From NCBI GenBank assembly GCA_965232485.1, contig OZ246975.1, forward strand, positions 739,196 to 803,195: a stretch of 64,000 nucleotides of DNA, read 5' to 3'. This DNA comes from Rhodothermales bacterium. GTDB lineage: Bacteria > Bacteroidota > Rhodothermia > Rhodothermales > VXPQ01. Positions 43,601-55,142 of this stretch are shown in pieces. How positions within the stretch are numbered: the first letter of the stretch is position 1; the number at the start of each line of letters is the position of its first letter. The translations under genes were made by a program, and so were the position numbers. The notes below the pieces were generated by a model. That model did not search any database. It was not told the DNA's origin and saw only the letters and a program-made list of their open reading frames with translations.

Positions 43601-45376
43601 TTACTTACTGAGCGTCATCAGTCCCGTGTGCGCCTGTCCGGCTGTCTCCAATCGATACAGATAGACCCCGCTCGGCAAGAACGTTCCGTCGAAGACCACG
43701 GTATGCCTGCCTGCATGTTGCGCCCCGTCCGCCAGTGTGGCTACCTCCCGCCCCAGCGCATCGTAGACGACGAGGCGCACCGGACCAGAGGCGGGCAGCG
43801 CATACTCAATGGTCGTGGCGCGCGCGAACGGGTTGGGGTAGTTCGACGTCAGCGTGGCGGAGACGGGAATTTCAGGAGCGGGTTCGCTTGACGTAATGGT
43901 CGCGGCGGCGTATCTGGCAAGGAAACGGCCCCCGGCTAGCACTGTGCACTCTTGGTCGTAGGGCAAGGACCGACCTATAGCATACAGGTCGCCGGCAGGA
44001 CTGACCGTCAGAGCAATATATGCCTCGTAAGAATCATTTTCATATGCGCCGGTAACGGTCCAGCGCAGATCGCCCTTCTCATCGTAGCGCGCTATAAAAC
44101 CATTTGGATCGTGGCCAACCCTGACCAACTGAGTTTTTCCTATGCTAACAACCGGACTGGTAAAATAGCCGCCCACATATACATGGCCCTCGGAATCTGT
44201 CGCCAGTGCGCATATATTGTCGTTGGCGCTACCCGCAATTTGCCGAACCCAGAGAATATCGCCGTCCGTATTGTGCTTGGTCAAAAAGGCGCCACTGCCT
44301 CCAGGGTCCACAAGAGCCGTGTCGGCGGTGGTCACAACGGGTTTGAGTGAATCGCCGTTACGCCAGGGACGCGTGCGCCAACCGACGAAAAAATTTCCTT
44401 CAGGGCCAACATCCATATCCCAAATGTATGGGGACTGATCAAGGTATCCATGCCTGTTTTGATACGATTCTTCCTGTATGCCAAGATCGGTAAGGGTGCG
44501 AACCCAGCGCAGATTGCCTTCGGCGTCGTAACTCGCCAAAACGCGCGTATCCTCAGTCAACGTTGCCTCATTGGGTTGCCCCTCGCCAAATACGGTTTCC
44601 TTGCCGAAGCAACCACCAAAATATGTGTTTCCATGACGATCCACGGTGAAAAATTCTGGTTTCCTGTTATCAAGGCCACAATAGGTAATCAGGGAGTCTA
44701 AATTATTTCCCTTGATTCGTCGCCCCCAGCGGGGAGCCCCGTTGGAAGTATAACTCGCCAGAAAAACATCGTAAGCATTCGGGCCAGACAAGAAAGCAAG
44801 CGTATCTGAATCAAAAAGAAGCCTCTTGTTATAAATGCCGACGGCGTAGATATTGTCCGCCTCGTCCAGGTCCAGACCCAAAATCCAACCCGCTTCCGGA
44901 AAAGCAAAGCGGGTATCCGAATAGTAATCGTTATATCCGACAGGAATGACTCGCAAGGATTCGCCGCCCTGGCTATAAATACCAATCGCTGTACCACCAA
45001 CAGTCAGCTGTAGAGAATTCCACACACGAGGGCGCCCCTCGCTGGTATAGATATGATCGTCTCCGACAGCTATGAGATAGGTCTTCATGTAATTGATTCT
45101 TTGCCATGCGTTCAAGGCCGCCTGACGAGTCCATATTTGTTCGCCATCCTGATTATACCGAGCAAATATGTCCGCACCCGGTATATATGCTTCCCCGTTT
45201 TTTCCTGTGTCAATATCCTTTATCCAGCCCATATTCCCTACCCACCGGACCCATGTTGGAGACGTGGAGAATTGATTTGAATTGGAAGCGTCAAAAGCCT
45301 GTGCCCGTACGCCTGCGGGAATAAGCGTAAACAGACCAAATAACAGCGCCGCCGCGTAATGTGCAGTATGCCTCAT
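43601..45376 (-). CDS. T9SS cargo protein: beta-propeller (SBBP-like) repeats + Por-secretion C-terminal sorting domain
   Basis: Start at MRHTAHY (45376). Signal peptide, repeated ...Y.GG.F... blades, CTD ...NYPNPFARATTIEYALPASGPVRLVVYDALGREVATL...SGVYLYRLETAGQAHTGLMTLSK. Confidence 0.85.
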   Translation of the reverse strand: MRHTAHYAAALLFGLFTLIPAGVRAQAFDASNSNQFSTSPTWVRWVGNMGWIKDIDTGKNGEAYIPGADIFARYNQDGEQIWTRQAALNAWQRINYMKTYLIAVGDDHIYTSEGRPRVWNSLQLTVGGTAIGIYSQGGESLRVIPVGYNDYYSDTRFAFPEAGWILGLDLDEADNIYAVGIYNKRLLFDSDTLAFLSGPNAYDVFLASYTSNGAPRWGRRIKGNNLDSLITYCGLDNRKPEFFTVDRHGNTYFGGCFGKETVFGEGQPNEATLTEDTRVLASYDAEGNLRWVRTLTDLGIQEESYQNRHGYLDQSPYIWDMDVGPEGNFFVGWRTRPWRNGDSLKPVVTTADTALVDPGGSGAFLTKHNTDGDILWVRQIAGSANDNICALATDSEGHVYVGGYFTSPVVSIGKTQLVRVGHDPNGFIARYDEKGDLRWTVTGAYENDSYEAYIALTVSPAGDLYAIGRSLPYDQECTVLAGGRFLARYAAATITSSEPAPEIPVSATLTSNYPNPFARATTIEYALPASGPVRLVVYDALGREVATLADGAQHAGRHTVVFDGTFLPSGVYLYRLETAGQAHTGLMTLSK

Positions 45377-45420
45377 ATCGTCCTCCATGATTCAGGTCAG
45401 CTGGCTTTGTGGGCGCCGTC

Positions 45421-47199
45421 TCATTTCCTGAGCGTCATCAACCCCGTGGTTGCCTGGCCGCCCGTTTCCAGGCGATACAGGTAAACCCCGCTGGGCAAAG
45501 GCATTCCGTCGAAGACGACGGTATGCCGGCCCGCATGTTGCGCCCCATCCGCCAGCGTGGCTACCTCCCGCCCCAGCGCATCGTAGACGACGAGGCGCAC
45601 CGGACCAGAGGCGAGCAGCGCATACTCAATGGTCGTGGCGCGCGCGAACGGGTTGGGGTAGTTCGACGTCAGCGTGGCGGCGACGGGAATCTCAGGAGCG
45701 GGTTCGCTGGACGTAATGGTCGAGGCGGCGTATTTGGCGAGGAAAGCGGTCGCCTCCGGTTCATACGGCCACACATATCTTCCCGGCAGGCATCCAAAAA
45801 GAATACTACGGCTTAAACCATAGAGGTCCCCGGAGAAACTGACGGCGACGAGATAAACGATGTTGACGCCCTCCCCGGCGACATGGCCAACCCAGCGCAC
45901 ATTACCCTCTCCATCGTAGCGCACTATGAAACCGTTTGTACTACCGCCAGACTTAATCAGCTGCGTCTCTTCGATTTGAAGAACGGAACTATCGAAAAAG
46001 CCTCCGATATATACGTCCCCTTGGGAGTCTGTCGCCAGAGTGCATATGGACTCGCCGCCCTTGCCTGCAATTTGCCGAACCCAAAGAATATCGCCCTCCG
46101 GGTTGTGCTTGACAAGAAACGCACCGCTGCCTCCAGGGTCCGCAAGAGCGACGCCGCCAACCACAACCGGCTTGTTTTGCCAAGCCTCAGCGCCCCAAAT
46201 GGTAAACAGATTTCGTTCAGCGTCTGTCGCCATATCCCAAATGTATGGGGTATATAGGTATTCGATATCACCATGATGGTCTTTGACACGAAATTCTTCC
46301 CGTACGCCGAGATCGGCAAGAGTGCGAAGCCAGCGCAGATTGCCGTCGGCGTCGAAACTCGCCAGAGCGCGAGCGTCCTCGGTAAAGGTTATTTCCCCGG
46401 GTTGATCAAAAGGCAACACAGGGCTTGCGCCGAAACAACCACCGAGATATGTGTTCCCCTCGGAATCCACAGTAAAAACGCCACGTCCTTCATTATACAA
46501 ATATGCATCAGAAGCTCTGCAACTTCGATTAATAGTGTCGAAGCCATATCCTGCGATACGACGCACCCAACGAGGCGCACCTTCTGGCGTATAACTGGCC
46601 ACAAAAACATCGTGGCCTATGAAATGACCGTCCTGGAAAGACGTGGGCAGGACAAAAAGCGTATCGGCCCCAAAAACATTCAGGTTTCTATAGACGCCAG
46701 CGATGTAGATATTGCCGGTCTCATCCAGGTCCAGACCCAGAATAGAGCTCACTTCAGGAAGTTCGCCTGACGATTCCCCGTCGAGGTTACGAATTCCTAT
46801 CTCGACCCCAAAACCAGAGAATCTCTCAGAGCCGTCCAGAACATCCGCCCACTCGGGCGCAATATCCCAAATCTCTGCCTCGCTTGTATAAATGTAATCT
46901 TCTCCAGCGGCAACGAGATATATATAACTACTATGTTTCGAAACTGCTTTTCGCACCCATTTTCGCGTACCATCGGGGTTATATTTGGCCAACATATCTA
47001 TGCCGGCTATATACACTTCTCCATCCTTTCCCGTAGCTATATCCTTGATCACGCCCAAGTCGCTCACTTCCTGAATCCAGACTGGAGTTGTGGAGAACTT
47101 CTGCGAATCATTAGCATTGAAACTTTGCCCCTGCGTACCTGCAGGAATAAGCAAAAGACCAAACCACGCCACCACCGAAAGATGTATCGTATGTCTCAT
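45421..47199 (-). CDS. T9SS cargo protein, paralog of 43601..45376
   Basis: 592 aa with the same architecture. The body is by eye roughly half identical to the neighbour, and the C-terminal sorting domain is nearly identical. Confidence 0.85.
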   Translation of the reverse strand: MRHTIHLSVVAWFGLLLIPAGTQGQSFNANDSQKFSTTPVWIQEVSDLGVIKDIATGKDGEVYIAGIDMLAKYNPDGTRKWVRKAVSKHSSYIYLVAAGEDYIYTSEAEIWDIAPEWADVLDGSERFSGFGVEIGIRNLDGESSGELPEVSSILGLDLDETGNIYIAGVYRNLNVFGADTLFVLPTSFQDGHFIGHDVFVASYTPEGAPRWVRRIAGYGFDTINRSCRASDAYLYNEGRGVFTVDSEGNTYLGGCFGASPVLPFDQPGEITFTEDARALASFDADGNLRWLRTLADLGVREEFRVKDHHGDIEYLYTPYIWDMATDAERNLFTIWGAEAWQNKPVVVGGVALADPGGSGAFLVKHNPEGDILWVRQIAGKGGESICTLATDSQGDVYIGGFFDSSVLQIEETQLIKSGGSTNGFIVRYDGEGNVRWVGHVAGEGVNIVYLVAVSFSGDLYGLSRSILFGCLPGRYVWPYEPEATAFLAKYAASTITSSEPAPEIPVAATLTSNYPNPFARATTIEYALLASGPVRLVVYDALGREVATLADGAQHAGRHTVVFDGMPLPSGVYLYRLETGGQATTGLMTLRK

Positions 47200-47756: not shown

Positions 47757-47771
47757 TTAATAATTTATTAA
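47757..47771. promoter_or_regulatory. perfect 7-1-7 palindrome TTAATAA-T-TTATTAA in the AT-rich island upstream of eboA
   Basis: Seen directly, about 100 nt upstream of the eboA ATG. Preceded by the hairpin GCGCTGCC-N8-GGCAGCGC. Confidence 0.3.
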
Positions 47772-47873: not shown

Positions 47874-48782
47874 ATGCCGCCTCCCCGACGTCCAGCCGAC
47901 TTGCCCCGCATCCGCGAGCAGCTCATGACCTGGATCGCCCGGCAAACCCGCGAAGAAGCCCTGCGCTGGCTGCGCGACCGCTGCGAGGCCATCGCAGGCG
48001 GCGCGCCGGACTCCAAATGTTTTCTGGCGTTCAGCGGCGCTCCCCGGCGGATTTCCAAAGACGCCCTTGCGCTCGACAAGGCGGACCTGGCGCAAGCCGA
48101 CGCCCTGCGTCCGGGATGGAACCCCGCAGGCTGGAGCGCGGACGAAGCGGCCCGCGCCCTCCTGATCCTGTCCCGCCCCGCGGACGACGAAAACGCGTAC
48201 GTCGGCATGGTCGAGCAACTGTTCTCGACCGCCGACGTCCGCGAATCGGCGGCGCTGTACCGCATGCTGCCGCTCTACCCCTTTCCCGAACGTTTCCGGG
48301 CCCGCGCCGCCGAAGGCGTCCGGAGCAACATGACCTCCGTATTCCAGGCCGTCGCACACCGCAACCCCTACCCCTCGGAATATTTCGACGAGGGCGCCTG
48401 GAACCAGATGATCCTCAAAGCCCTCTTTACCGATAGCGTCCTGTGCGAGGTGGTCGGACTGGATTCGCGCAGCAACCCGTCCCTGGCCCGCATGCTCGCG
48501 GACTACGCGCGCGAGCGCTGGGCCGCCGGACGCGTCGTTTCCCCCGAACTCTGGCGTCCCGTGGGACCATTCGCGACGCAAGGCTATCTGCCCGACCTGC
48601 AACGCGTCCTGCACAGCGACGACGAAGCGGAGCAAGAAGCCGCCGCCCTGACGCTGGCCCAGGCGAACGCGCCCGCCGCCAACGAACTGCTGGACGCATT
48701 CCCCCGCCTGAAACAACGCATCGGAACCGGCGAACTGACCTGGGAATCGTTTGCCCGGAACCGGATCGCGGGCGCGGCATAG
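47874..48782 (+). CDS. eboA: EboA-like protein (first gene of the ebo cluster)
   Basis: 302 aa with no enzymatic motif recognised. The call rests mainly on its position ahead of the TatD / DHQS-like / TIM-barrel / phosphodiesterase genes. Confidence 0.6.
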   Translation: MPPPRRPADLPRIREQLMTWIARQTREEALRWLRDRCEAIAGGAPDSKCFLAFSGAPRRISKDALALDKADLAQADALRPGWNPAGWSADEAARALLILSRPADDENAYVGMVEQLFSTADVRESAALYRMLPLYPFPERFRARAAEGVRSNMTSVFQAVAHRNPYPSEYFDEGAWNQMILKALFTDSVLCEVVGLDSRSNPSLARMLADYARERWAAGRVVSPELWRPVGPFATQGYLPDLQRVLHSDDEAEQEAAALTLAQANAPAANELLDAFPRLKQRIGTGELTWESFARNRIAGAA

Positions 48783-48882
48783 GCTTTCGCATCCACGCCG
48801 GACAACCCCGACGCCATATCATCTTTCGATACTTCTTTCCCGACTTTGCGGCGCAAGCGCCGCCTTCGCCCTCCTTGCCGTT

Positions 48883-49803
48883 ATGCCGACGCGACCTCCC
48901 CTGTACATTGATCCGCATGTCCACATGATCTCCCGGACCACGGACGACTACGAAGCCATGCGCGCCGGCGGCGTCGCAGCCGTCATAGAACCCGCCTTCT
49001 GGCTGGGCCAGCCGCGCACTACGGTGGGAGCCTTCAAGGATTATTTCTCCATGATCGTGGGCTGGGAACGCTTCCGGGCAGGCCAGTTCGGCGTTCGGCA
49101 TTACTGCGCCATCGGACTCAACGCCAAGGAAGCGAACAACGAACCGCTTGCAGACGAAGTGATGGAGCTCCTGCCGCTCTACGCCGCCAAGGAGGGCGTC
49201 GTGGCGATCGGAGAAATCGGATACGACGACATGACGCCCGCCGAGGACAAATATTTCCGGCTGCAACTTGAACTGGCGCAAGAACTCGACATGCTCGTGC
49301 TCATTCATACCCCCCATCGCAACAAAAAAGAAGGAACGAGCCGCAGCATGGATACCTGCGACGACATGGGACTGGCCCCGGATCGGGTTATCGTGGACCA
49401 CAACAACGAAGAAACGGTCCGGGAAGTCCTCGACCGCGGCTACTGGGCCGCCTTCACCATCTATCCGTTCACGAAAATGGGCAACGAACGGATGGTCGAG
49501 ATTGTGCGGGAATACGGCGCAGAGCGAATTTTCATAGACAGCGCGGCGGACTGGGGCGTCAGCGATCCGCTGGCCGTGCCCAAAACGGCCCGCCTCATGG
49601 CCGAGCGAGGCGTTCCGGAAGACGCGATCCGCGCCGTGACGTACGACAACGCCCTTGCGGCGTACGGGCAAAGCGGGCAGTTTTCGGAAAAGGACTGGCT
49701 GGAGCCGGAGCCCATCGACCAGCGCGACCTGTACGGCGGAAATTCGGTGCTGCGCGGCGGACAAACCCCCGTAGTCCAGGACAAAGGATTGATTATCGAG
49801 TAA
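48883..49803 (+). CDS. eboB: TatD-family metal-dependent hydrolase (EboB)
   Basis: Start at the ATG at 48883. YIDPHVHM, ...AIGEIGYD..., LVLIHTPH, ...FIDSAADWG amidohydrolase-fold motifs. Confidence 0.8.
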   Translation: MPTRPPLYIDPHVHMISRTTDDYEAMRAGGVAAVIEPAFWLGQPRTTVGAFKDYFSMIVGWERFRAGQFGVRHYCAIGLNAKEANNEPLADEVMELLPLYAAKEGVVAIGEIGYDDMTPAEDKYFRLQLELAQELDMLVLIHTPHRNKKEGTSRSMDTCDDMGLAPDRVIVDHNNEETVREVLDRGYWAAFTIYPFTKMGNERMVEIVREYGAERIFIDSAADWGVSDPLAVPKTARLMAERGVPEDAIRAVTYDNALAAYGQSGQFSEKDWLEPEPIDQRDLYGGNSVLRGGQTPVVQDKGLIIE

Positions 49804-50009
49804 CGTCCGTCAATCCCGGACCGCATCGCCGGACGTCCCGACGTCGACGAGGCTGGACCTGGCGCTTCGCCCCGCGCCCGGCGAAATTGCGGAAACCTGC
49901 GGCGCCGACCTGATCTTTTCTGCGACGAACGGGTATTATGCCCCGGCGCCGGACGAAAGCAATCCGGCGCGCCGCCCGCAAGCCATTCGCCGCAGGAAAA
50001 CCCGTACCG

Positions 50010-51209
50010 ATGCAAACGATCCGGCAGGATATTCAGGTTGCCTTCCGGTACGACGTACATTTCGTCGCGGACGCCTTCGATCCGGGAAACGACCTGCTCG
50101 GCCGCATCGTCGGGGCAGAGGAAGGCGTCGCCTGGCGGAAGATACTGCCGGTGATCGACGAGGGATTGCTGCCCCATTACCCGGACCTGCGCGAGCGCAT
50201 GGAGGCGTATTTCGCGCAATGGGCCGATGCGCTGACCCTGCATCCCCCCGTGACGGCGCCGGCGGGCGAAGCCGCCAAAAACGATCCTGCGCTGGTCAGC
50301 AAACTGCACGCCGCCATCCGACGCGGCGGACTGTGCCGCCATTCGTTCGTCCTGGCGATCGGAGGCGGCTCCGTTCTGGACCTTGCCGGATACGCCGCAG
50401 CCACCGCGCACCGGGGCGTCCGCCTCGTTCGCATGCCGACCACGGTGCTGGCCCAGAACGATTCGGGCGTGGGGGTCAAAAACAGCGTCAACGCACTGAA
50501 CGCCAAGAATTTTCTGGGCGCGTTCGCGCCGCCGTACGCGGTGGTGAATGATTTTTCCTTCCTGCCCTCGCTATCCGACCGCGACTGGCGAAGCGGGATC
50601 GCCGAAGCCGTCAAGGTAGCGCTCGTCAAGGACGGCGCGTTCTTCGACGAACTTGAAGCGGATGCGGAACGCCTTGCGCCGCCCCGGCGGGACGCAGACG
50701 CCATGGAACGGCTTATCTACCAGTGCGCCGCCCTGCATCTGGACCATATCGCCACCTCGGGGGACCCTTTCGAGATGGGAACCTCTCGCCCTCTTGATTT
50801 CGGCCACTGGGCCGCGCATCAGCTGGAGCAGCTCACGAATTATGCGCTGCGGCACGGGGAAGCGGTGGCCATAGGCGTCGCCCTTGACGCCGCCTATTCG
50901 CATCTGTGCGGCCTCCTCTCCGAACGCGACCGGAACCGGGTGTTCGGCCTGCTCGAAACCATGGGCTTCCGTCTGTACGCGCCTGAAATCGGGGCGCACA
51001 TGGACGAGCCTGATCATCCGCGATCCATTTTCCGGGGCCTCGAGGCTTTTCGGGAGCACCTCGGCGGCGCGTTGACCGTCATGCTGCTGGCGGGCGTCGG
51101 CCAGGGCGTGGAAGTGCACGAGGTCGATCCGGCCCTGTATCGGCAGGCCATCGCCCTGTTGCGCGAGCGGGCAAGCCGCGCCGAACCCGTCGCCGCACAC
51201 ATTCCCTGA
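50010..51209 (+). CDS. eboD: 3-dehydroquinate synthase-like sugar phosphate cyclase (EboD)
   Basis: Start at the ATG at 50010. ...VLAIGGGSVLDLAGYAA..., RMPTTVLAQNDSGVGVKN, ...HWAAHQLE... DHQS-fold metal and NAD motifs. Confidence 0.8.
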   Translation: MQTIRQDIQVAFRYDVHFVADAFDPGNDLLGRIVGAEEGVAWRKILPVIDEGLLPHYPDLRERMEAYFAQWADALTLHPPVTAPAGEAAKNDPALVSKLHAAIRRGGLCRHSFVLAIGGGSVLDLAGYAAATAHRGVRLVRMPTTVLAQNDSGVGVKNSVNALNAKNFLGAFAPPYAVVNDFSFLPSLSDRDWRSGIAEAVKVALVKDGAFFDELEADAERLAPPRRDADAMERLIYQCAALHLDHIATSGDPFEMGTSRPLDFGHWAAHQLEQLTNYALRHGEAVAIGVALDAAYSHLCGLLSERDRNRVFGLLETMGFRLYAPEIGAHMDEPDHPRSIFRGLEAFREHLGGALTVMLLAGVGQGVEVHEVDPALYRQAIALLRERASRAEPVAAHIP

Positions 51210-51214
51210 CGACC

Positions 51215-52447
51215 ATGCGCATTCGGCACGGAGAAGGCCTGGAACTGACCTACTGCGCCAACATCCACCCGGGCGAAACGCTCGACGAGGCGGAAGAAAA
51301 CCTGCGGACGCATGCGGTCGCCGTCAAGAAAAAGGTGTCTCCCGACGCGCCCATGGGCGTGGGGCTGCGCCTGTCCAGCCGCGCCGCGGACGCATTGACC
51401 GAAGACGCCGCCCGCCTCGACCGTTTTCGCAGCCTGCTGGACGAACGCGGGCTGTACGCCTTCACGATCAACGGTTTCCCGTACGGCCATTTTCACCGGA
51501 AGCGCGTCAAGGACGAGGTCTATAAGCCGGACTGGCGCACCGCCGAGCGGCGCATCTACACGGAACGGCTCGCAAATATTCTCGCGCGGCTGCTGCCGGA
51601 CGGCGTCGAGGGCAGCATTTCCACCTCTCCCCTTTCCTACAAACCCTGGCTACGGGAGCAGTATATCTGGAACGATGCGCTGCGCATGGGCGCGGAGCAG
51701 CTTGCCGACGTCGCCTTCCGGCTTTTCGCGCGGCGCGAACGCACCGGACAGCTCATCCATGTCGGGATTGAGCCGGAACCGGATTGCCTGATCGAAAACA
51801 CCGCTGAAACCGTGTCCTTCTTCAAGGAATGGCTCTGGCGACGCGGAACGAGCCGCCTGAGGCAGCGGCGCGGCCTCAACAGGACGCAGGCGGAAGATAT
51901 TTTGCGAGAACATATTCGCCTGTGCTACGACACATGCCACTTTGCGGTGGAATTCGAATCTCCCCGAGAAGCGCTGGCGACGTTCGAAACGGCCGGGATC
52001 CGGCTCGGTAAAATCCAGATCAGCGCGGCGTTGCGCGTTCCGCTGGACGAGCCTGGCGCGGCGACCCGGCGGACGCTGCGCGACGCGCTGGAGCCCTTCG
52101 CGGAATCCACCTACCTGCATCAAGTGGCGGCTCGGTCGGCGAACGGGGCGCTGCACCGCTACCGGGACCTGCCCGACGCCCTCCCCTGCCTGCCGACCGA
52201 CGAGGCGGAAGAATGGCGGATTCATTACCATGTGCCCGTGTTCATCGACCGGTTTCCGCATTTCCGCTCGACGCAGGAAGACATTACGGCCACGCTTGCA
52301 CAGGCGCTGCGGGGCGGCTTGTGTCCCCACCTTGAGATCGAAACCTACACTTGGGAGGTGCTTCCGGAGCCGCTCAAAACGGATGTCGTATCCTCCATCG
52401 CCCGCGAATATGCATGGGTGATGGCCTGCCTTGATCGCATCGCCTGA
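51215..52447 (+). CDS. eboE: xylose isomerase-like TIM-barrel protein (EboE)
   Basis: 410 aa. LTYCANIHPGETL..., INGFPYGHF..., HVGIEPEPDC..., CYDTCHFAVEF... matches the EboE-type TIM barrel as I recall it. Confidence 0.8.
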   Translation: MRIRHGEGLELTYCANIHPGETLDEAEENLRTHAVAVKKKVSPDAPMGVGLRLSSRAADALTEDAARLDRFRSLLDERGLYAFTINGFPYGHFHRKRVKDEVYKPDWRTAERRIYTERLANILARLLPDGVEGSISTSPLSYKPWLREQYIWNDALRMGAEQLADVAFRLFARRERTGQLIHVGIEPEPDCLIENTAETVSFFKEWLWRRGTSRLRQRRGLNRTQAEDILREHIRLCYDTCHFAVEFESPREALATFETAGIRLGKIQISAALRVPLDEPGAATRRTLRDALEPFAESTYLHQVAARSANGALHRYRDLPDALPCLPTDEAEEWRIHYHVPVFIDRFPHFRSTQEDITATLAQALRGGLCPHLEIETYTWEVLPEPLKTDVVSSIAREYAWVMACLDRIA

Positions 52448-52465
52448 AGCGCCGCCTCGCTCGCC

Positions 52466-53857
52466 ATGCCGAAACTCGCCGTTCTGAATGTCGTCGGGCT
52501 GACGCCCCGCCTCTTGCCGCATGCGCCTTTCCTGTCGGCGTGGGCCGAGCGCGGCAAGTCCGCATCCATGACGCCCGTCCTGCCCGCGGTCACGTGTTCC
52601 ATGCAAGCCACCCTGCTGACCGGGACCATGCCCTCGAAACATGGAATCGTCGGCAACGGCTGGTATGTCCGGGACGAGGGAGAAATCCGGTTCTGGCGGC
52701 AGTCGAACCGGCTCGTGCAGGGCGAAAAGATATGGGAAAAGGCGCGGCGCCTCGGCGCGGACAGAACCGGGCCGGGCATGATCTCGGCCAACCTGTTCTG
52801 GTGGTACAATATGTACTCGTCGGTGGAATATGCGGTGACGCCCCGTCCCATGTACCCCGCCGACGGGCGGAAAATTCCAGACGTCTGGGTCGAGCCGGAA
52901 GCGTTGCGGGCGGAGTTGCAGCGCAAACTGGGCAGGTTCCCGCTGTTCGAATTCTGGGGACCCGGAACGAGCATACGTTCGAGCGAATGGATCGCCCGAG
53001 CCGCGTTGCATGTGGACGCGGCGTGCGATCCGGGCATGACGTTCGTCTATCTGCCCCATCTGGACTACGTATTGCAACGCGAAGGGCCGGACGGGCCCGG
53101 CGTGGCGGCGGAGGCGGCGCAAATCGACGCGGTCTGCGAGGAACTCGTGGCGCACTACGAAGCGCAGGGCGCGGCCGTCCTTGTGCTTTCGGAATACGGC
53201 GTCACGCCCGCGCGGCGGGCCGTGTCGCTCAATCGCGCGCTGCGGCGGGAAGGCTTTCTGCGCATACGGGAAGAACTGGGGCGCGAACTTCTTGATGCGG
53301 GAGCGAGCCGGGCCTTTGCGGTAGCGGACCATCAAGTGGCGCATGTGTACGCGAACGACCCGGAGGCGCTGGAGGATGTGCGCGCGCTCGTCGAAGAGAC
53401 CGACGGCGTCGCCCAGGTCCTGCAGGGCGAGGAACGCGCCGCCTATGGCCTGGATCATCCCCGGGCGGGGGATCTCGTCGCCGTGGCCGAGCCGGACGCC
53501 TGGTTCGCGTATTACTACTGGCTGGACGACGACCGGGCGCCCGATTTCGCCCGCACCGTGGATATTCATCGCAAGCCGGGCTACGATCCGTGCGAACTCT
53601 TTCTGGACCCGGCCCTGCCCTCGGCCCGGCTCAAGGCAGCGTGGCGGCTATTGCAAAAGAAACTGGGGTTTCGCTACCTGCTGGACGTCATCCCCCTGGA
53701 CCCGTCGCTGGTCCGGGGATCGCACGGACGGCTGCCGGACGATCCGCTGGATGGGCCGCTGGTCCTCTCCAACCGCGCCGACCTGCTCCCGGACGGCCCG
53801 TTGCACGCCACCGAAATGCAGGACGCAATGCTGGCGCACCTCGGGGCGGGACAGTAG
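52466..53857 (+). CDS. eboF: alkaline phosphatase / nucleotide pyrophosphatase-phosphodiesterase family protein (EboF)
   Basis: 463 aa. ...VLPAVTCSMQATLLTGTMPSKHGIVGNGWY (nucleophile Thr region), ...YLPHLDY..., ...GSHG... Confidence 0.8.
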   Translation: MPKLAVLNVVGLTPRLLPHAPFLSAWAERGKSASMTPVLPAVTCSMQATLLTGTMPSKHGIVGNGWYVRDEGEIRFWRQSNRLVQGEKIWEKARRLGADRTGPGMISANLFWWYNMYSSVEYAVTPRPMYPADGRKIPDVWVEPEALRAELQRKLGRFPLFEFWGPGTSIRSSEWIARAALHVDAACDPGMTFVYLPHLDYVLQREGPDGPGVAAEAAQIDAVCEELVAHYEAQGAAVLVLSEYGVTPARRAVSLNRALRREGFLRIREELGRELLDAGASRAFAVADHQVAHVYANDPEALEDVRALVEETDGVAQVLQGEERAAYGLDHPRAGDLVAVAEPDAWFAYYYWLDDDRAPDFARTVDIHRKPGYDPCELFLDPALPSARLKAAWRLLQKKLGFRYLLDVIPLDPSLVRGSHGRLPDDPLDGPLVLSNRADLLPDGPLHATEMQDAMLAHLGAGQ

Positions 53858-53947: not shown

Positions 53948-55045
53948 CTACATTTCGACGATGCGCCGCCAGGCGGCGCGGGCCAGCACGAGGCGAGCCG
54001 AGATACGATGGGTATATCCCAGATCGGAAGCCAGGCCCGCAAAATTCCCGAATCCGTAATTGAAGGTCAGGCGACCCAGGTGCAAACCGGCCCCCACTGT
54101 CGGCGCCGCATCCCATCCGTCGTCTCCCGACCTTAGAACATCGGTACAGCCCGCGCGCAAGGCCACGACGTCCCGAAAACCGTATTCCACGCCCAGCCGG
54201 GGGTGGTACGATACGCCGCCCGTGTGCAGCGCCCAGGCTTGCCGCCCCTCGAAAGCCATATCCACATCAAGGGCCAGCGCGATGCGGTGCGCGCCCGCGT
54301 TCAGAATATATCCCGATCCGAGCCGCAGCACAGGCAGAACCGTCTCCACGCCGCCCTTCGGAATCGTTTGCCCGAAAACATCTTCGATATTCGAAAGCAA
54401 ATCCCGGTTGACGGTCCAGGATTGCCGCATGCCGGCGGCGTCCTGCAGGTTGGCGCCCGCCCTGAAGGAACCGCGACGGTACAACGCCCCGACGTCGAAA
54501 CTATACCCCCAGGCGTCCGCAAAATCTCCAATGCTGCGGCGAACGATCTTTGCGGTCGCGCCCGCGGCGAAGCTCGTCCGCACCTGACGCGCATAGCTTA
54601 TGAAGAACGCTGCATCCGCCGCGGAAAAACTGGAAATATGCTCTTCCGGGTTCGGTCGAGGCTGATCGCGCTCGGGGTCCCAGGCGTCCAGCGTGTTTTT
54701 TATGTCGTTCACGCCGCTCCGGAAAAACGAAGCTCCCAGTGTCGAGCGGGCGTTGACCGGCCATGAAACCGCCCCGTAATCGAACGAAACGATCCCGGCG
54801 AAGCGCTCCGCGTGCATGTATTCGACTTCGGGGAAGAGGGTCTGGCTGAGGCCGGCGGGATTCCAGTACCCTGCGCTGACGTCGTCCGCGAGCGCAATAT
54901 GGGCGCCGCCCATGCCCAGCGCCCGTCCGCCCGCGCCGGCGGCCAGAAAATCCGCCCCGTAGCTTACCACCTGCCCAGCGACAGGCGCCGCCGCAAACAA
55001 GGCCGCCAAAAGACCTGCGCAAAAAGACGATCGGACTGCGGTCAT
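53948..55045 (-). CDS. PorV/PorQ-family outer-membrane beta-barrel protein
   Basis: Start at MTAVRSS (55045). Signal peptide, GGRALGMGGAHIALADDVSAGYWNPAGL motif, alternating strands to the C-terminus. Confidence 0.65.
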   Translation of the reverse strand: MTAVRSSFCAGLLAALFAAAPVAGQVVSYGADFLAAGAGGRALGMGGAHIALADDVSAGYWNPAGLSQTLFPEVEYMHAERFAGIVSFDYGAVSWPVNARSTLGASFFRSGVNDIKNTLDAWDPERDQPRPNPEEHISSFSAADAAFFISYARQVRTSFAAGATAKIVRRSIGDFADAWGYSFDVGALYRRGSFRAGANLQDAAGMRQSWTVNRDLLSNIEDVFGQTIPKGGVETVLPVLRLGSGYILNAGAHRIALALDVDMAFEGRQAWALHTGGVSYHPRLGVEYGFRDVVALRAGCTDVLRSGDDGWDAAPTVGAGLHLGRLTFNYGFGNFAGLASDLGYTHRISARLVLARAAWRRIVEM

Positions 55046-55142
55046 AAAATTTTGCGGTTGCACGGGTTCTGTCCGGATTCGTCCCGGCCCGCCGCAGCGA
55101 AACGAACGGCGCGGCGGCGTCGACGTCGAATCAGCGCACCCC

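Follow-up and report, generated by a model that had tools for sequence, protein, structure and literature searches.

A complete ebo gene set encoded at two distant loci in an uncultured genus of Rhodothermales

Five ebo genes in the window and eboC at a distant locus

The window analyzed here is a 64,000-nucleotide stretch (positions 739,196-803,195) of the chromosome of a Rhodothermales bacterium (genome G000), which is closed, 3.16 Mb in size, contained in one contig and 98.6% complete. Based on an open reading frame (ORF) listing and profile searches, five co-directional genes at window positions 47874-53857 were identified as eboA, eboB, eboD, eboE and eboF. An earlier note, made from the letters of the window, had read these genes as an ebo cluster without the UbiA-type prenyltransferase gene eboC, and the profile matches back each of its five assignments. 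The sixth gene, eboC, was found on the same chromosome, approximately 365 kb from the cluster. For comparison, 12 species-level genomes of the genus including G000 (seven closed, the others drafts) and a class-level sample of 151 genomes, each at least 90% complete, were used. The named relatives of G000 are uncultured 'Rhodothermales bacterium' metagenome-assembled genomes throughout.

The first gene of the cluster, eboA (47874..48782, plus strand), encodes a protein of 302 aa that scores 175 bits against the EboA_domain model NF035938 (cut-off 50) and 301 bits against the narrower EboA_family model, narrowly below the cut-off of 320. This protein shares 78-88% identity with its congeneric homologs and 48-60% with EboA from canonical clusters in sister genera. 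The adjoining eboB (48883..49803, plus strand) encodes a TatD-family hydrolase (Pfam TatD_DNase PF01026, 64 bits; cut-off 27); its ORF is open from 48751 to 49803, with the ATG at 48883 as the likely start. EboB is the most conserved Ebo protein, with identities of 83-96% in the genus and 74-84% in the family and order, and at the latter values the TatD protein of the window is orthologous to EboB from canonical clusters. The product of eboD (50010..51209, plus strand) is a 3-dehydroquinate synthase (DHQS)-like sugar phosphate cyclase with the Pfam domains DHQ_synthase and DHQS_C, which reaches 552 bits on NF004852/PRK06203 (cut-off 333) and 203 bits on the aroB model, under the cut-off of 305. 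The housekeeping aroB is a separate gene (G000 311603-312556, 344 bits). The eboD start at 50010 is conserved with the congener G007, and an upstream ATG at 49938 has no conserved frame. The gene eboE (51215..52447, plus strand) encodes a TIM-barrel protein matching the equivalog NF035939 TIM_EboE with 487 bits (cut-off 250), and eboF (52466..53857, plus strand) encodes a member of the NPP/alkaline-phosphatase superfamily (Pfam Phosphodiest PF01663, 217 bits; cut-off 23) that is 80-89% identical within the genus. The genes at 47874..48782 and 51215..52447, whose family membership the earlier note had proposed to check, therefore fall in Ebo families by their EboA_domain and TIM_EboE scores. 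In a genome search, EboA and EboE were single-copy in G000 and present in the window only, and no internal stops were found in the searched ebo genes of G000.

A whole-genome search with the EboC equivalog model NF035940 (cut-off 250 bits) returned one match over the cut-off, at G000:C1:420,922-421,803 on the minus strand, with a score of 358 bits, full length and without stops. The corresponding eboC gene (G000:C1:420,919-421,836, minus strand; L005:9920-10837) encodes 305 aa and is assigned to NCBIfam EboC and Pfam UbiA. The only other EboC-model match in G000 is cyoE, with 25 bits. In an alignment of eight EboC sequences from congeners, sister genera, Pontibacter, Nostoc and Fodinibius, all 100 invariant columns are kept in the distal EboC, which also retains the Asp-rich N72-D73-x2-D76-x3-D80 motif. 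At the genome level the ebo set of G000 is complete, and the sole unmet feature is the position of eboC inside the cluster. The earlier note had listed as possibilities that the gene is encoded elsewhere or that the pathway is inactive, rewired or non-prenylated; the first is borne out by this match.

Conservation and descent of the detached eboC

Both eboC and eboE are present in all 12 genomes of the genus. They lie 347-525 kb apart in the seven closed genomes and on separate contigs in the drafts. In six genomes from other genera of the family (G013-G018) and one from each of three other Rhodothermales families (G019, G031 and G034), eboC lies approximately 2.4 kb from eboE in the order A-B-C-D-E-F. 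The eboE gene of G031 (L114; G031:C1:3,566,071-3,567,236) is read in two overlapping frames covering model positions 1-123 and 120-378, which reflects either a frameshift or an assembly error.

In the class-level sample, 27 of the 151 genomes carry EboE; EboC lies at most 14 kb from EboE in 15 of these 27, and a UbiA-type partner is present in every one of them. Three genomes from other Rhodothermales families, G126, G132 and G134, were candidates for eboC-less genomes, having EboE without EboC at E <= 1e-40, and were rejected because a divergent UbiA gene adjoins eboE in each. Their clusters (L131, L129 and L130, respectively) lack eboA and follow the order (eboD)-eboB-eboE-UbiA*-eboF, and their UbiA* proteins reach just 86-97 bits with the EboC model; G132 contains an additional, partial copy of eboF. 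In G153 from Balneolaceae, eboD-E-F and eboA-B-C are located on two contigs (L132/L133), each mid-contig; here the ebo cluster of Balneolaceae, with its divergent arrangement, was split independently. In G166, a congener of G153, eboC and eboE are 14 kb apart. Within the class-level sample, eboC is detached alone only in the genus studied here.

The genus forms a monophyletic group (100/100) within its family in the EboC tree, with G014+G018 as its sister, and the cluster tree, built from concatenated EboA+B+D+E+F, has the same topology. Since the two topologies agree, the distal eboC descends vertically from the gene once located in the operon and is not a foreign one. That the distal eboC is a horizontally gained copy replacing a lost native gene would accord with its position outside the cluster and with the variable genes downstream of it, which include a 2174-aa PKD/Ig protein and secretion-tail fragments. 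This scenario is nevertheless extremely improbable, as the EboC of the genus has the same sister genera in its tree as the cluster proteins do in theirs (support 95-100), and as its nearest relatives outside the genus are EboC proteins from Rhodothermales (59-61% identity), those from Bacteroidota and cyanobacteria sharing 46-56%.

In five within-genus pairs for which dN/dS was computed, the ratios are 0.11-0.23 for eboC and 0.02-0.32 for the other five ebo genes. The distal eboC is under purifying selection. With an EboC equivalog encoded in the genome, eboC and eboE together in every genus genome, co-divergence of EboC with the cluster proteins and purifying selection, the idea of an eboC-less, inactive or non-prenylated variant pathway is not upheld. 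The earlier note had itself named an eboC ortholog elsewhere, in a conserved partnership, as an observation that would refute that idea, and such an ortholog is what was found, with the partnership conserved across the genus.

The vacated slot and the block next to eboC

In the window, the former eboC slot is a spacer of 206 bp (49804..50009), which is real because the TAA stop of eboB ends at 49803 and the conserved ATG of eboD lies at 50010. No UbiA-like gene is present between eboB and eboD in G000 or any congener. In 10 congeners the eboB-eboD gap measures 1.3-3.0 kb and contains an antisense gene of approximately 380 aa with a DUF4172-Fic-HTH architecture. Genome searches showed that this Fic gene is single-copy and located in the eboB-eboD slot in all 11 other genus genomes, with identities of 71-77%; searches of the family's other genera did not find it, and an intact copy is missing from G000. 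The spacer aligns with G007 in three pieces, namely the eboB end, the last ~24 Fic codons and the Fic-eboD intergenic region. Using tblastn with the G007 Fic protein, residues 358-381 matched the spacer with 71% amino-acid identity (E = 5e-6), locating the remnant at 49808..49884 on the minus strand. At the nucleotide level, 49808-49881 aligns to the 3' end of the G007 Fic gene with 82% identity over 74 bases, 49893-49948 aligns to the G007 Fic-eboD intergenic region, and approximately 1160 bp between these two pieces are missing from G000 relative to G007.

The spacer is thus the scar of a Fic deletion and not an eboC scar. In the cluster tree, G000 is sister to G007, which carries Fic, and other Fic-bearing species surround the pair; Fic was therefore lost by a deletion specific to G000. 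Translated searches for an eboC remnant gave noise only in the spacer and no remnant in the eboB-eboD gaps of the 10 congeners (all E > 0.07). The description of 49804-50009 in the earlier note as non-coding and free of any UbiA-like ORF or remnant, with eboC locally absent between eboB and eboD, therefore holds, although a minus-strand Fic remnant lies inside; the eboC codons that the note had proposed to look for there are not present, the sequence in the slot being the Fic scar.

These observations also bear on whether the pathway was broken when the operon lost eboC and received the Fic insertion, leaving the remaining genes to become pseudogenes. The antisense gene does interrupt the operon in 11 congeners, the genomes of the genus are small (2.7-3.2 Mb, compared with 3.8-5.7 Mb in the sister genera), and homologs of MtnA and RsmF, which are cluster neighbors in the sister genera, were not found in the G000 genome at E <= 1e-5. 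The smaller genomes and the missing homologs are consistent with genome reduction alongside the rearrangement. All six ebo genes, however, are intact in every genus genome in which they could be examined, despite protein divergence of 11-25%, internal stops are absent, and the dN/dS ratios stay at 0.02-0.32, which makes decay of the pathway very improbable.

The distal eboC lies directly 3' of, and on the same strand as, a gene encoding a 721-aa protein of unknown function, termed unk721 (L005:10911-13076, minus strand), with a gap of 73 bp in G000 and usually 20-130 bp in congeners. No match to unk721 was found in Pfam, NCBIfam or PDB sequences. Upstream of unk721 are a Wzi-like gene and then, on the opposite strand, a polyprenyl-phosphate sugar transferase gene, and these three genes are grouped with eboC in all 11 congeners. 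The G000 unk721 protein is 77-79% identical to those of the other subclade (G002, G004, G005 and G008-G010), whereas its identity to the proteins of its own subclade (G001, G003, G006 and G007) is only 58-62%. The downstream side of the eboC locus is variable. Directly downstream of eboC in G000 lies the gene for the 2174-aa protein mentioned above, which has at least eight PKD-like/Ig repeats (L005:3214-9738 = G000:C1:414,213-420,737, minus strand). G002 encodes this protein as well, on the strand opposite to eboC; beside eboC in the other congeners it was not detected, and fragments with secretion-tail domains lie there in other species.

In three sister-genus genomes (G016, G017 and G018), homologs of unk721 and the Wzi-like gene lie 2-3.5 kb upstream of eboA, with RsmF-like and MtnA-like (IF-2B family) genes between. 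On a 184-kb contig of G018, the segments at 3-80.5 kb and 95-125 kb match G000 from 846 to 753 kb in collinear order, and the intervening 11.5-kb block maps to G000 421.9-433.8 kb, abutting eboC. On the G018 contig the moved block carries RsmF, unk721, the Wzi-like gene, the sugar transferase gene, ahpC, gatB and tpiA. In G000, a block of approximately 13 kb with unk721, the Wzi-like gene, the sugar transferase gene, ahpC, gatB and tpiA ends in eboC, and in the sister genera this block is directly upstream of eboA. As indicated by this synteny map, an ordinary piece of chromosome that once flanked the operon was moved, and eboC moved with the block or joined it. A single large inversion with breakpoints beside eboC and eboA was rejected, as the collinearity of G000 753-846 kb with the sister-genus contig extends to either side of the cluster. 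The data are compatible with two routes: eboC may have hopped approximately 5 kb past eboA-eboB before the block was translocated, or a duplicative translocation of the segment from the block through eboA-eboB-eboC may have been followed by reciprocal losses.

The setting of eboC also bears on a further possibility, in which the product of the five-gene cluster is not prenylated (a cyclitol or a quinoline) and the distal EboC-like protein has been recruited elsewhere, for instance in an envelope or polysaccharide role. The close spacing of eboC behind unk721 on the same strand in most congeners, near the Wzi-like and sugar transferase genes, would suit such a recruitment, as would the fairly long stem branch (0.51) that leads to the genus in the EboC tree. 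The unk721/Wzi neighborhood, however, is inherited synteny and not a new functional grouping, because both genes already flank the canonical cluster in G016-G018; the block further carries the housekeeping genes gatB and tpiA, and the genus also has a long stem in the cluster tree (0.24, where the overall scale is shorter). In addition, the distal EboC scores 108 bits over the equivalog cut-off with every invariant residue kept, its tree mirrors the cluster tree, its gene has the same dN/dS as the other ebo genes, and eboC and eboE occur together throughout the genus. Recruitment of EboC to another role with a prenyl-free product is accordingly quite unlikely.

Known ebo systems and the likely function of a proposed two-locus pathway

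The canonical eboABCDEF cluster is known from Bacteroidota, cyanobacteria and eustigmatophyte plastids (PMC5133447, PMC6282210). G000 shares with it the same six families, the gene order and the co-direction, and precisely this operon is found in the sister genera within its Rhodothermales family. G000 differs from it in that eboC is approximately 365 kb out of the operon, the slot being filled by Fic in the congeners and reduced to the 206-bp scar in G000. Split or scattered ebo genes are already known from Planctomycetota and from Nostoc punctiforme (PMC5133447). In Planctomycetota such as Stieleria maiorica Mal15 (Kallscheuer et al. 2026, bioRxiv 10.64898/2026.05.21.724671), the ebo genes likewise occupy separate loci, and clustering is unnecessary for ebo function because single deletions of the unlinked eboB, eboC, eboE and eboF of S. 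maiorica each abolish thallusin. There, all ebo genes are dispersed and eboA is absent, whereas the genus studied here retains eboA and has moved only eboC, in a recent, genus-level event inside a lineage that otherwise keeps the operon. In Nostoc punctiforme (Yurchenko 2016, PMC5133447, section 3.6; Klicki 2018, PMC6282210), one ebo gene lies apart from the other five and the pathway is functional; the separated gene is eboD, located beside scytonemin genes, with a second eboD paralog among the other ebo genes, whereas the gene displaced here is a single-copy eboC. Within the class Rhodothermia, ebo gene order is fluid: Balneolaceae have divergent eboABC / eboDEF and some Rhodothermales families (D)-B-E-C*-F, yet in these arrangements eboC is still beside eboB or eboE. 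Three features are specific to the present case: eboC alone is detached throughout the genus, a Fic gene came to fill the slot, and G000 has secondarily deleted that gene.

It is highly probable that the genus runs a complete, ordinary ebo pathway from two loci, with eboC relocated in the genus ancestor and Fic placed in the vacated slot. On this reconstruction, eboC would have left the eboB-eboD slot in the common ancestor of the genus, the antisense Fic gene would have occupied the slot on the same ancestral branch, and G000 alone would later have deleted approximately 1.16 kb of Fic, leaving the 206-bp spacer. As to the product, the statement in the earlier note that it is chemically undefined is dated. 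A preprint of May 2026 (bioRxiv 10.64898/2026.05.21.724671) reports that whether thallusin and saccharoquinoline are produced depends on the ebo genes in four phyla, that the quinoline core incorporates L-aspartate, and that hydroxylated quinaldic acids were farnesylated in assays by EboC enzymes of three phyla; the core ebo set is defined there as eboB, C, E and F. Ebo biochemistry is further covered in PMC12904256. By homology with the characterized Ebo proteins, EboB, EboE and EboF would use L-aspartate in building a hydroxylated quinaldic-acid core, which the distally encoded membrane enzyme EboC would farnesylate and possibly cyclize, yielding a saccharoquinoline/thallusin-type meroterpenoid. 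By this analogy, a thallusin-type ebo pathway encoded at two loci is most likely, and we infer that the two loci are co-expressed.

Several observations weigh against this reading. In G007, a 3.1-kb insert separates unk721 and eboC, so that co-transcription of the two genes is not universal. Between G000 and G007, dS is 0.85 for eboC compared with 0.30-0.41 for the cluster genes, which hints that the distal locus has a somewhat different history and, together with the identity pattern of unk721, suggests allelic exchange or recombination at that locus. No remnants of eboA, eboB or eboD were found flanking the relocated eboC (E > 0.02); such remnants would have spoken for the duplicative route. 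The presumed link to thallusin is drawn from one preprint, which already describes 'clustered versus isolated' ebo arrangements and does not mention Rhodothermales.

Taken alone, the apparently eboC-less cluster of the window would have pointed to a prenyl-free product, whereas the genome-wide search shows a six-gene set. Surveys based on clusters, with a rule such as 'at least 4 genes within 6 ORFs', will count genomes of this kind as eboC-negative. The genus is a natural example of an operon prenyltransferase gene that was moved to a distant locus and is still under selection, supporting the view of the preprint that ebo genes act as a unit regardless of linkage. The Fic-bearing congeners and the clean deletion in G000 further offer a natural contrast for ebo regulation. 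The relocation might also not have been neutral, the placement of eboC at the 3' end of the Wzi-like/unk721 envelope locus and the conserved antisense Fic-HTH gene in the operon having rewired regulation. This is unlikely; if true, prenylation, as the committed membrane step, would be controlled apart from soluble precursor synthesis, release of the product would perhaps be coupled to the envelope or exopolysaccharide state, and the Fic loss in G000 would amount to a natural 'regulator knockout'.

Scans for sigma-70-type promoters and terminators at both loci gave no more than chance, and the consensus used may not suit this phylum. Approximately 100 nt upstream of eboA, at window positions 47757-47771, is an AT-rich perfect palindrome, TTAATAA-T-TTATTAA, which is unique in the genome. 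In congeners from the subclade of G000, related motifs, also AT-rich and of the form TATTACCAAAATATTAA, occupy the corresponding position, with a conserved CCCCGAACC...GGTACAACAA stretch after them. This palindrome stretch is probably the eboA promoter or operator. As an operator common to the eboA and eboC loci the palindrome was rejected, given its single genomic occurrence and its absence near eboC.

On the other side of the cluster, a convergent gene (53948..55063, minus strand) encodes a protein of 371 aa of unknown function, whose sole Pfam match, to UPF0164, is weak. It is a conserved neighbor, adjoining eboF in all members of the genus and in the family-level relatives G012-G018. Upstream of eboA, two paralogous genes encoding proteins of 595 and 592 aa occupy window positions 43601-47199 on the minus strand. 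This stretch is probably a variable island, since nothing corresponds to it at that position in the sister-genus contig. Its GC content is low (0.49-0.55, with a genome average of 0.60 and approximately 0.65 in the cluster), and both proteins combine weak beta-propeller repeats with a C-terminal sorting domain for type IX secretion, their Pfam scores lying just under the cut-offs.

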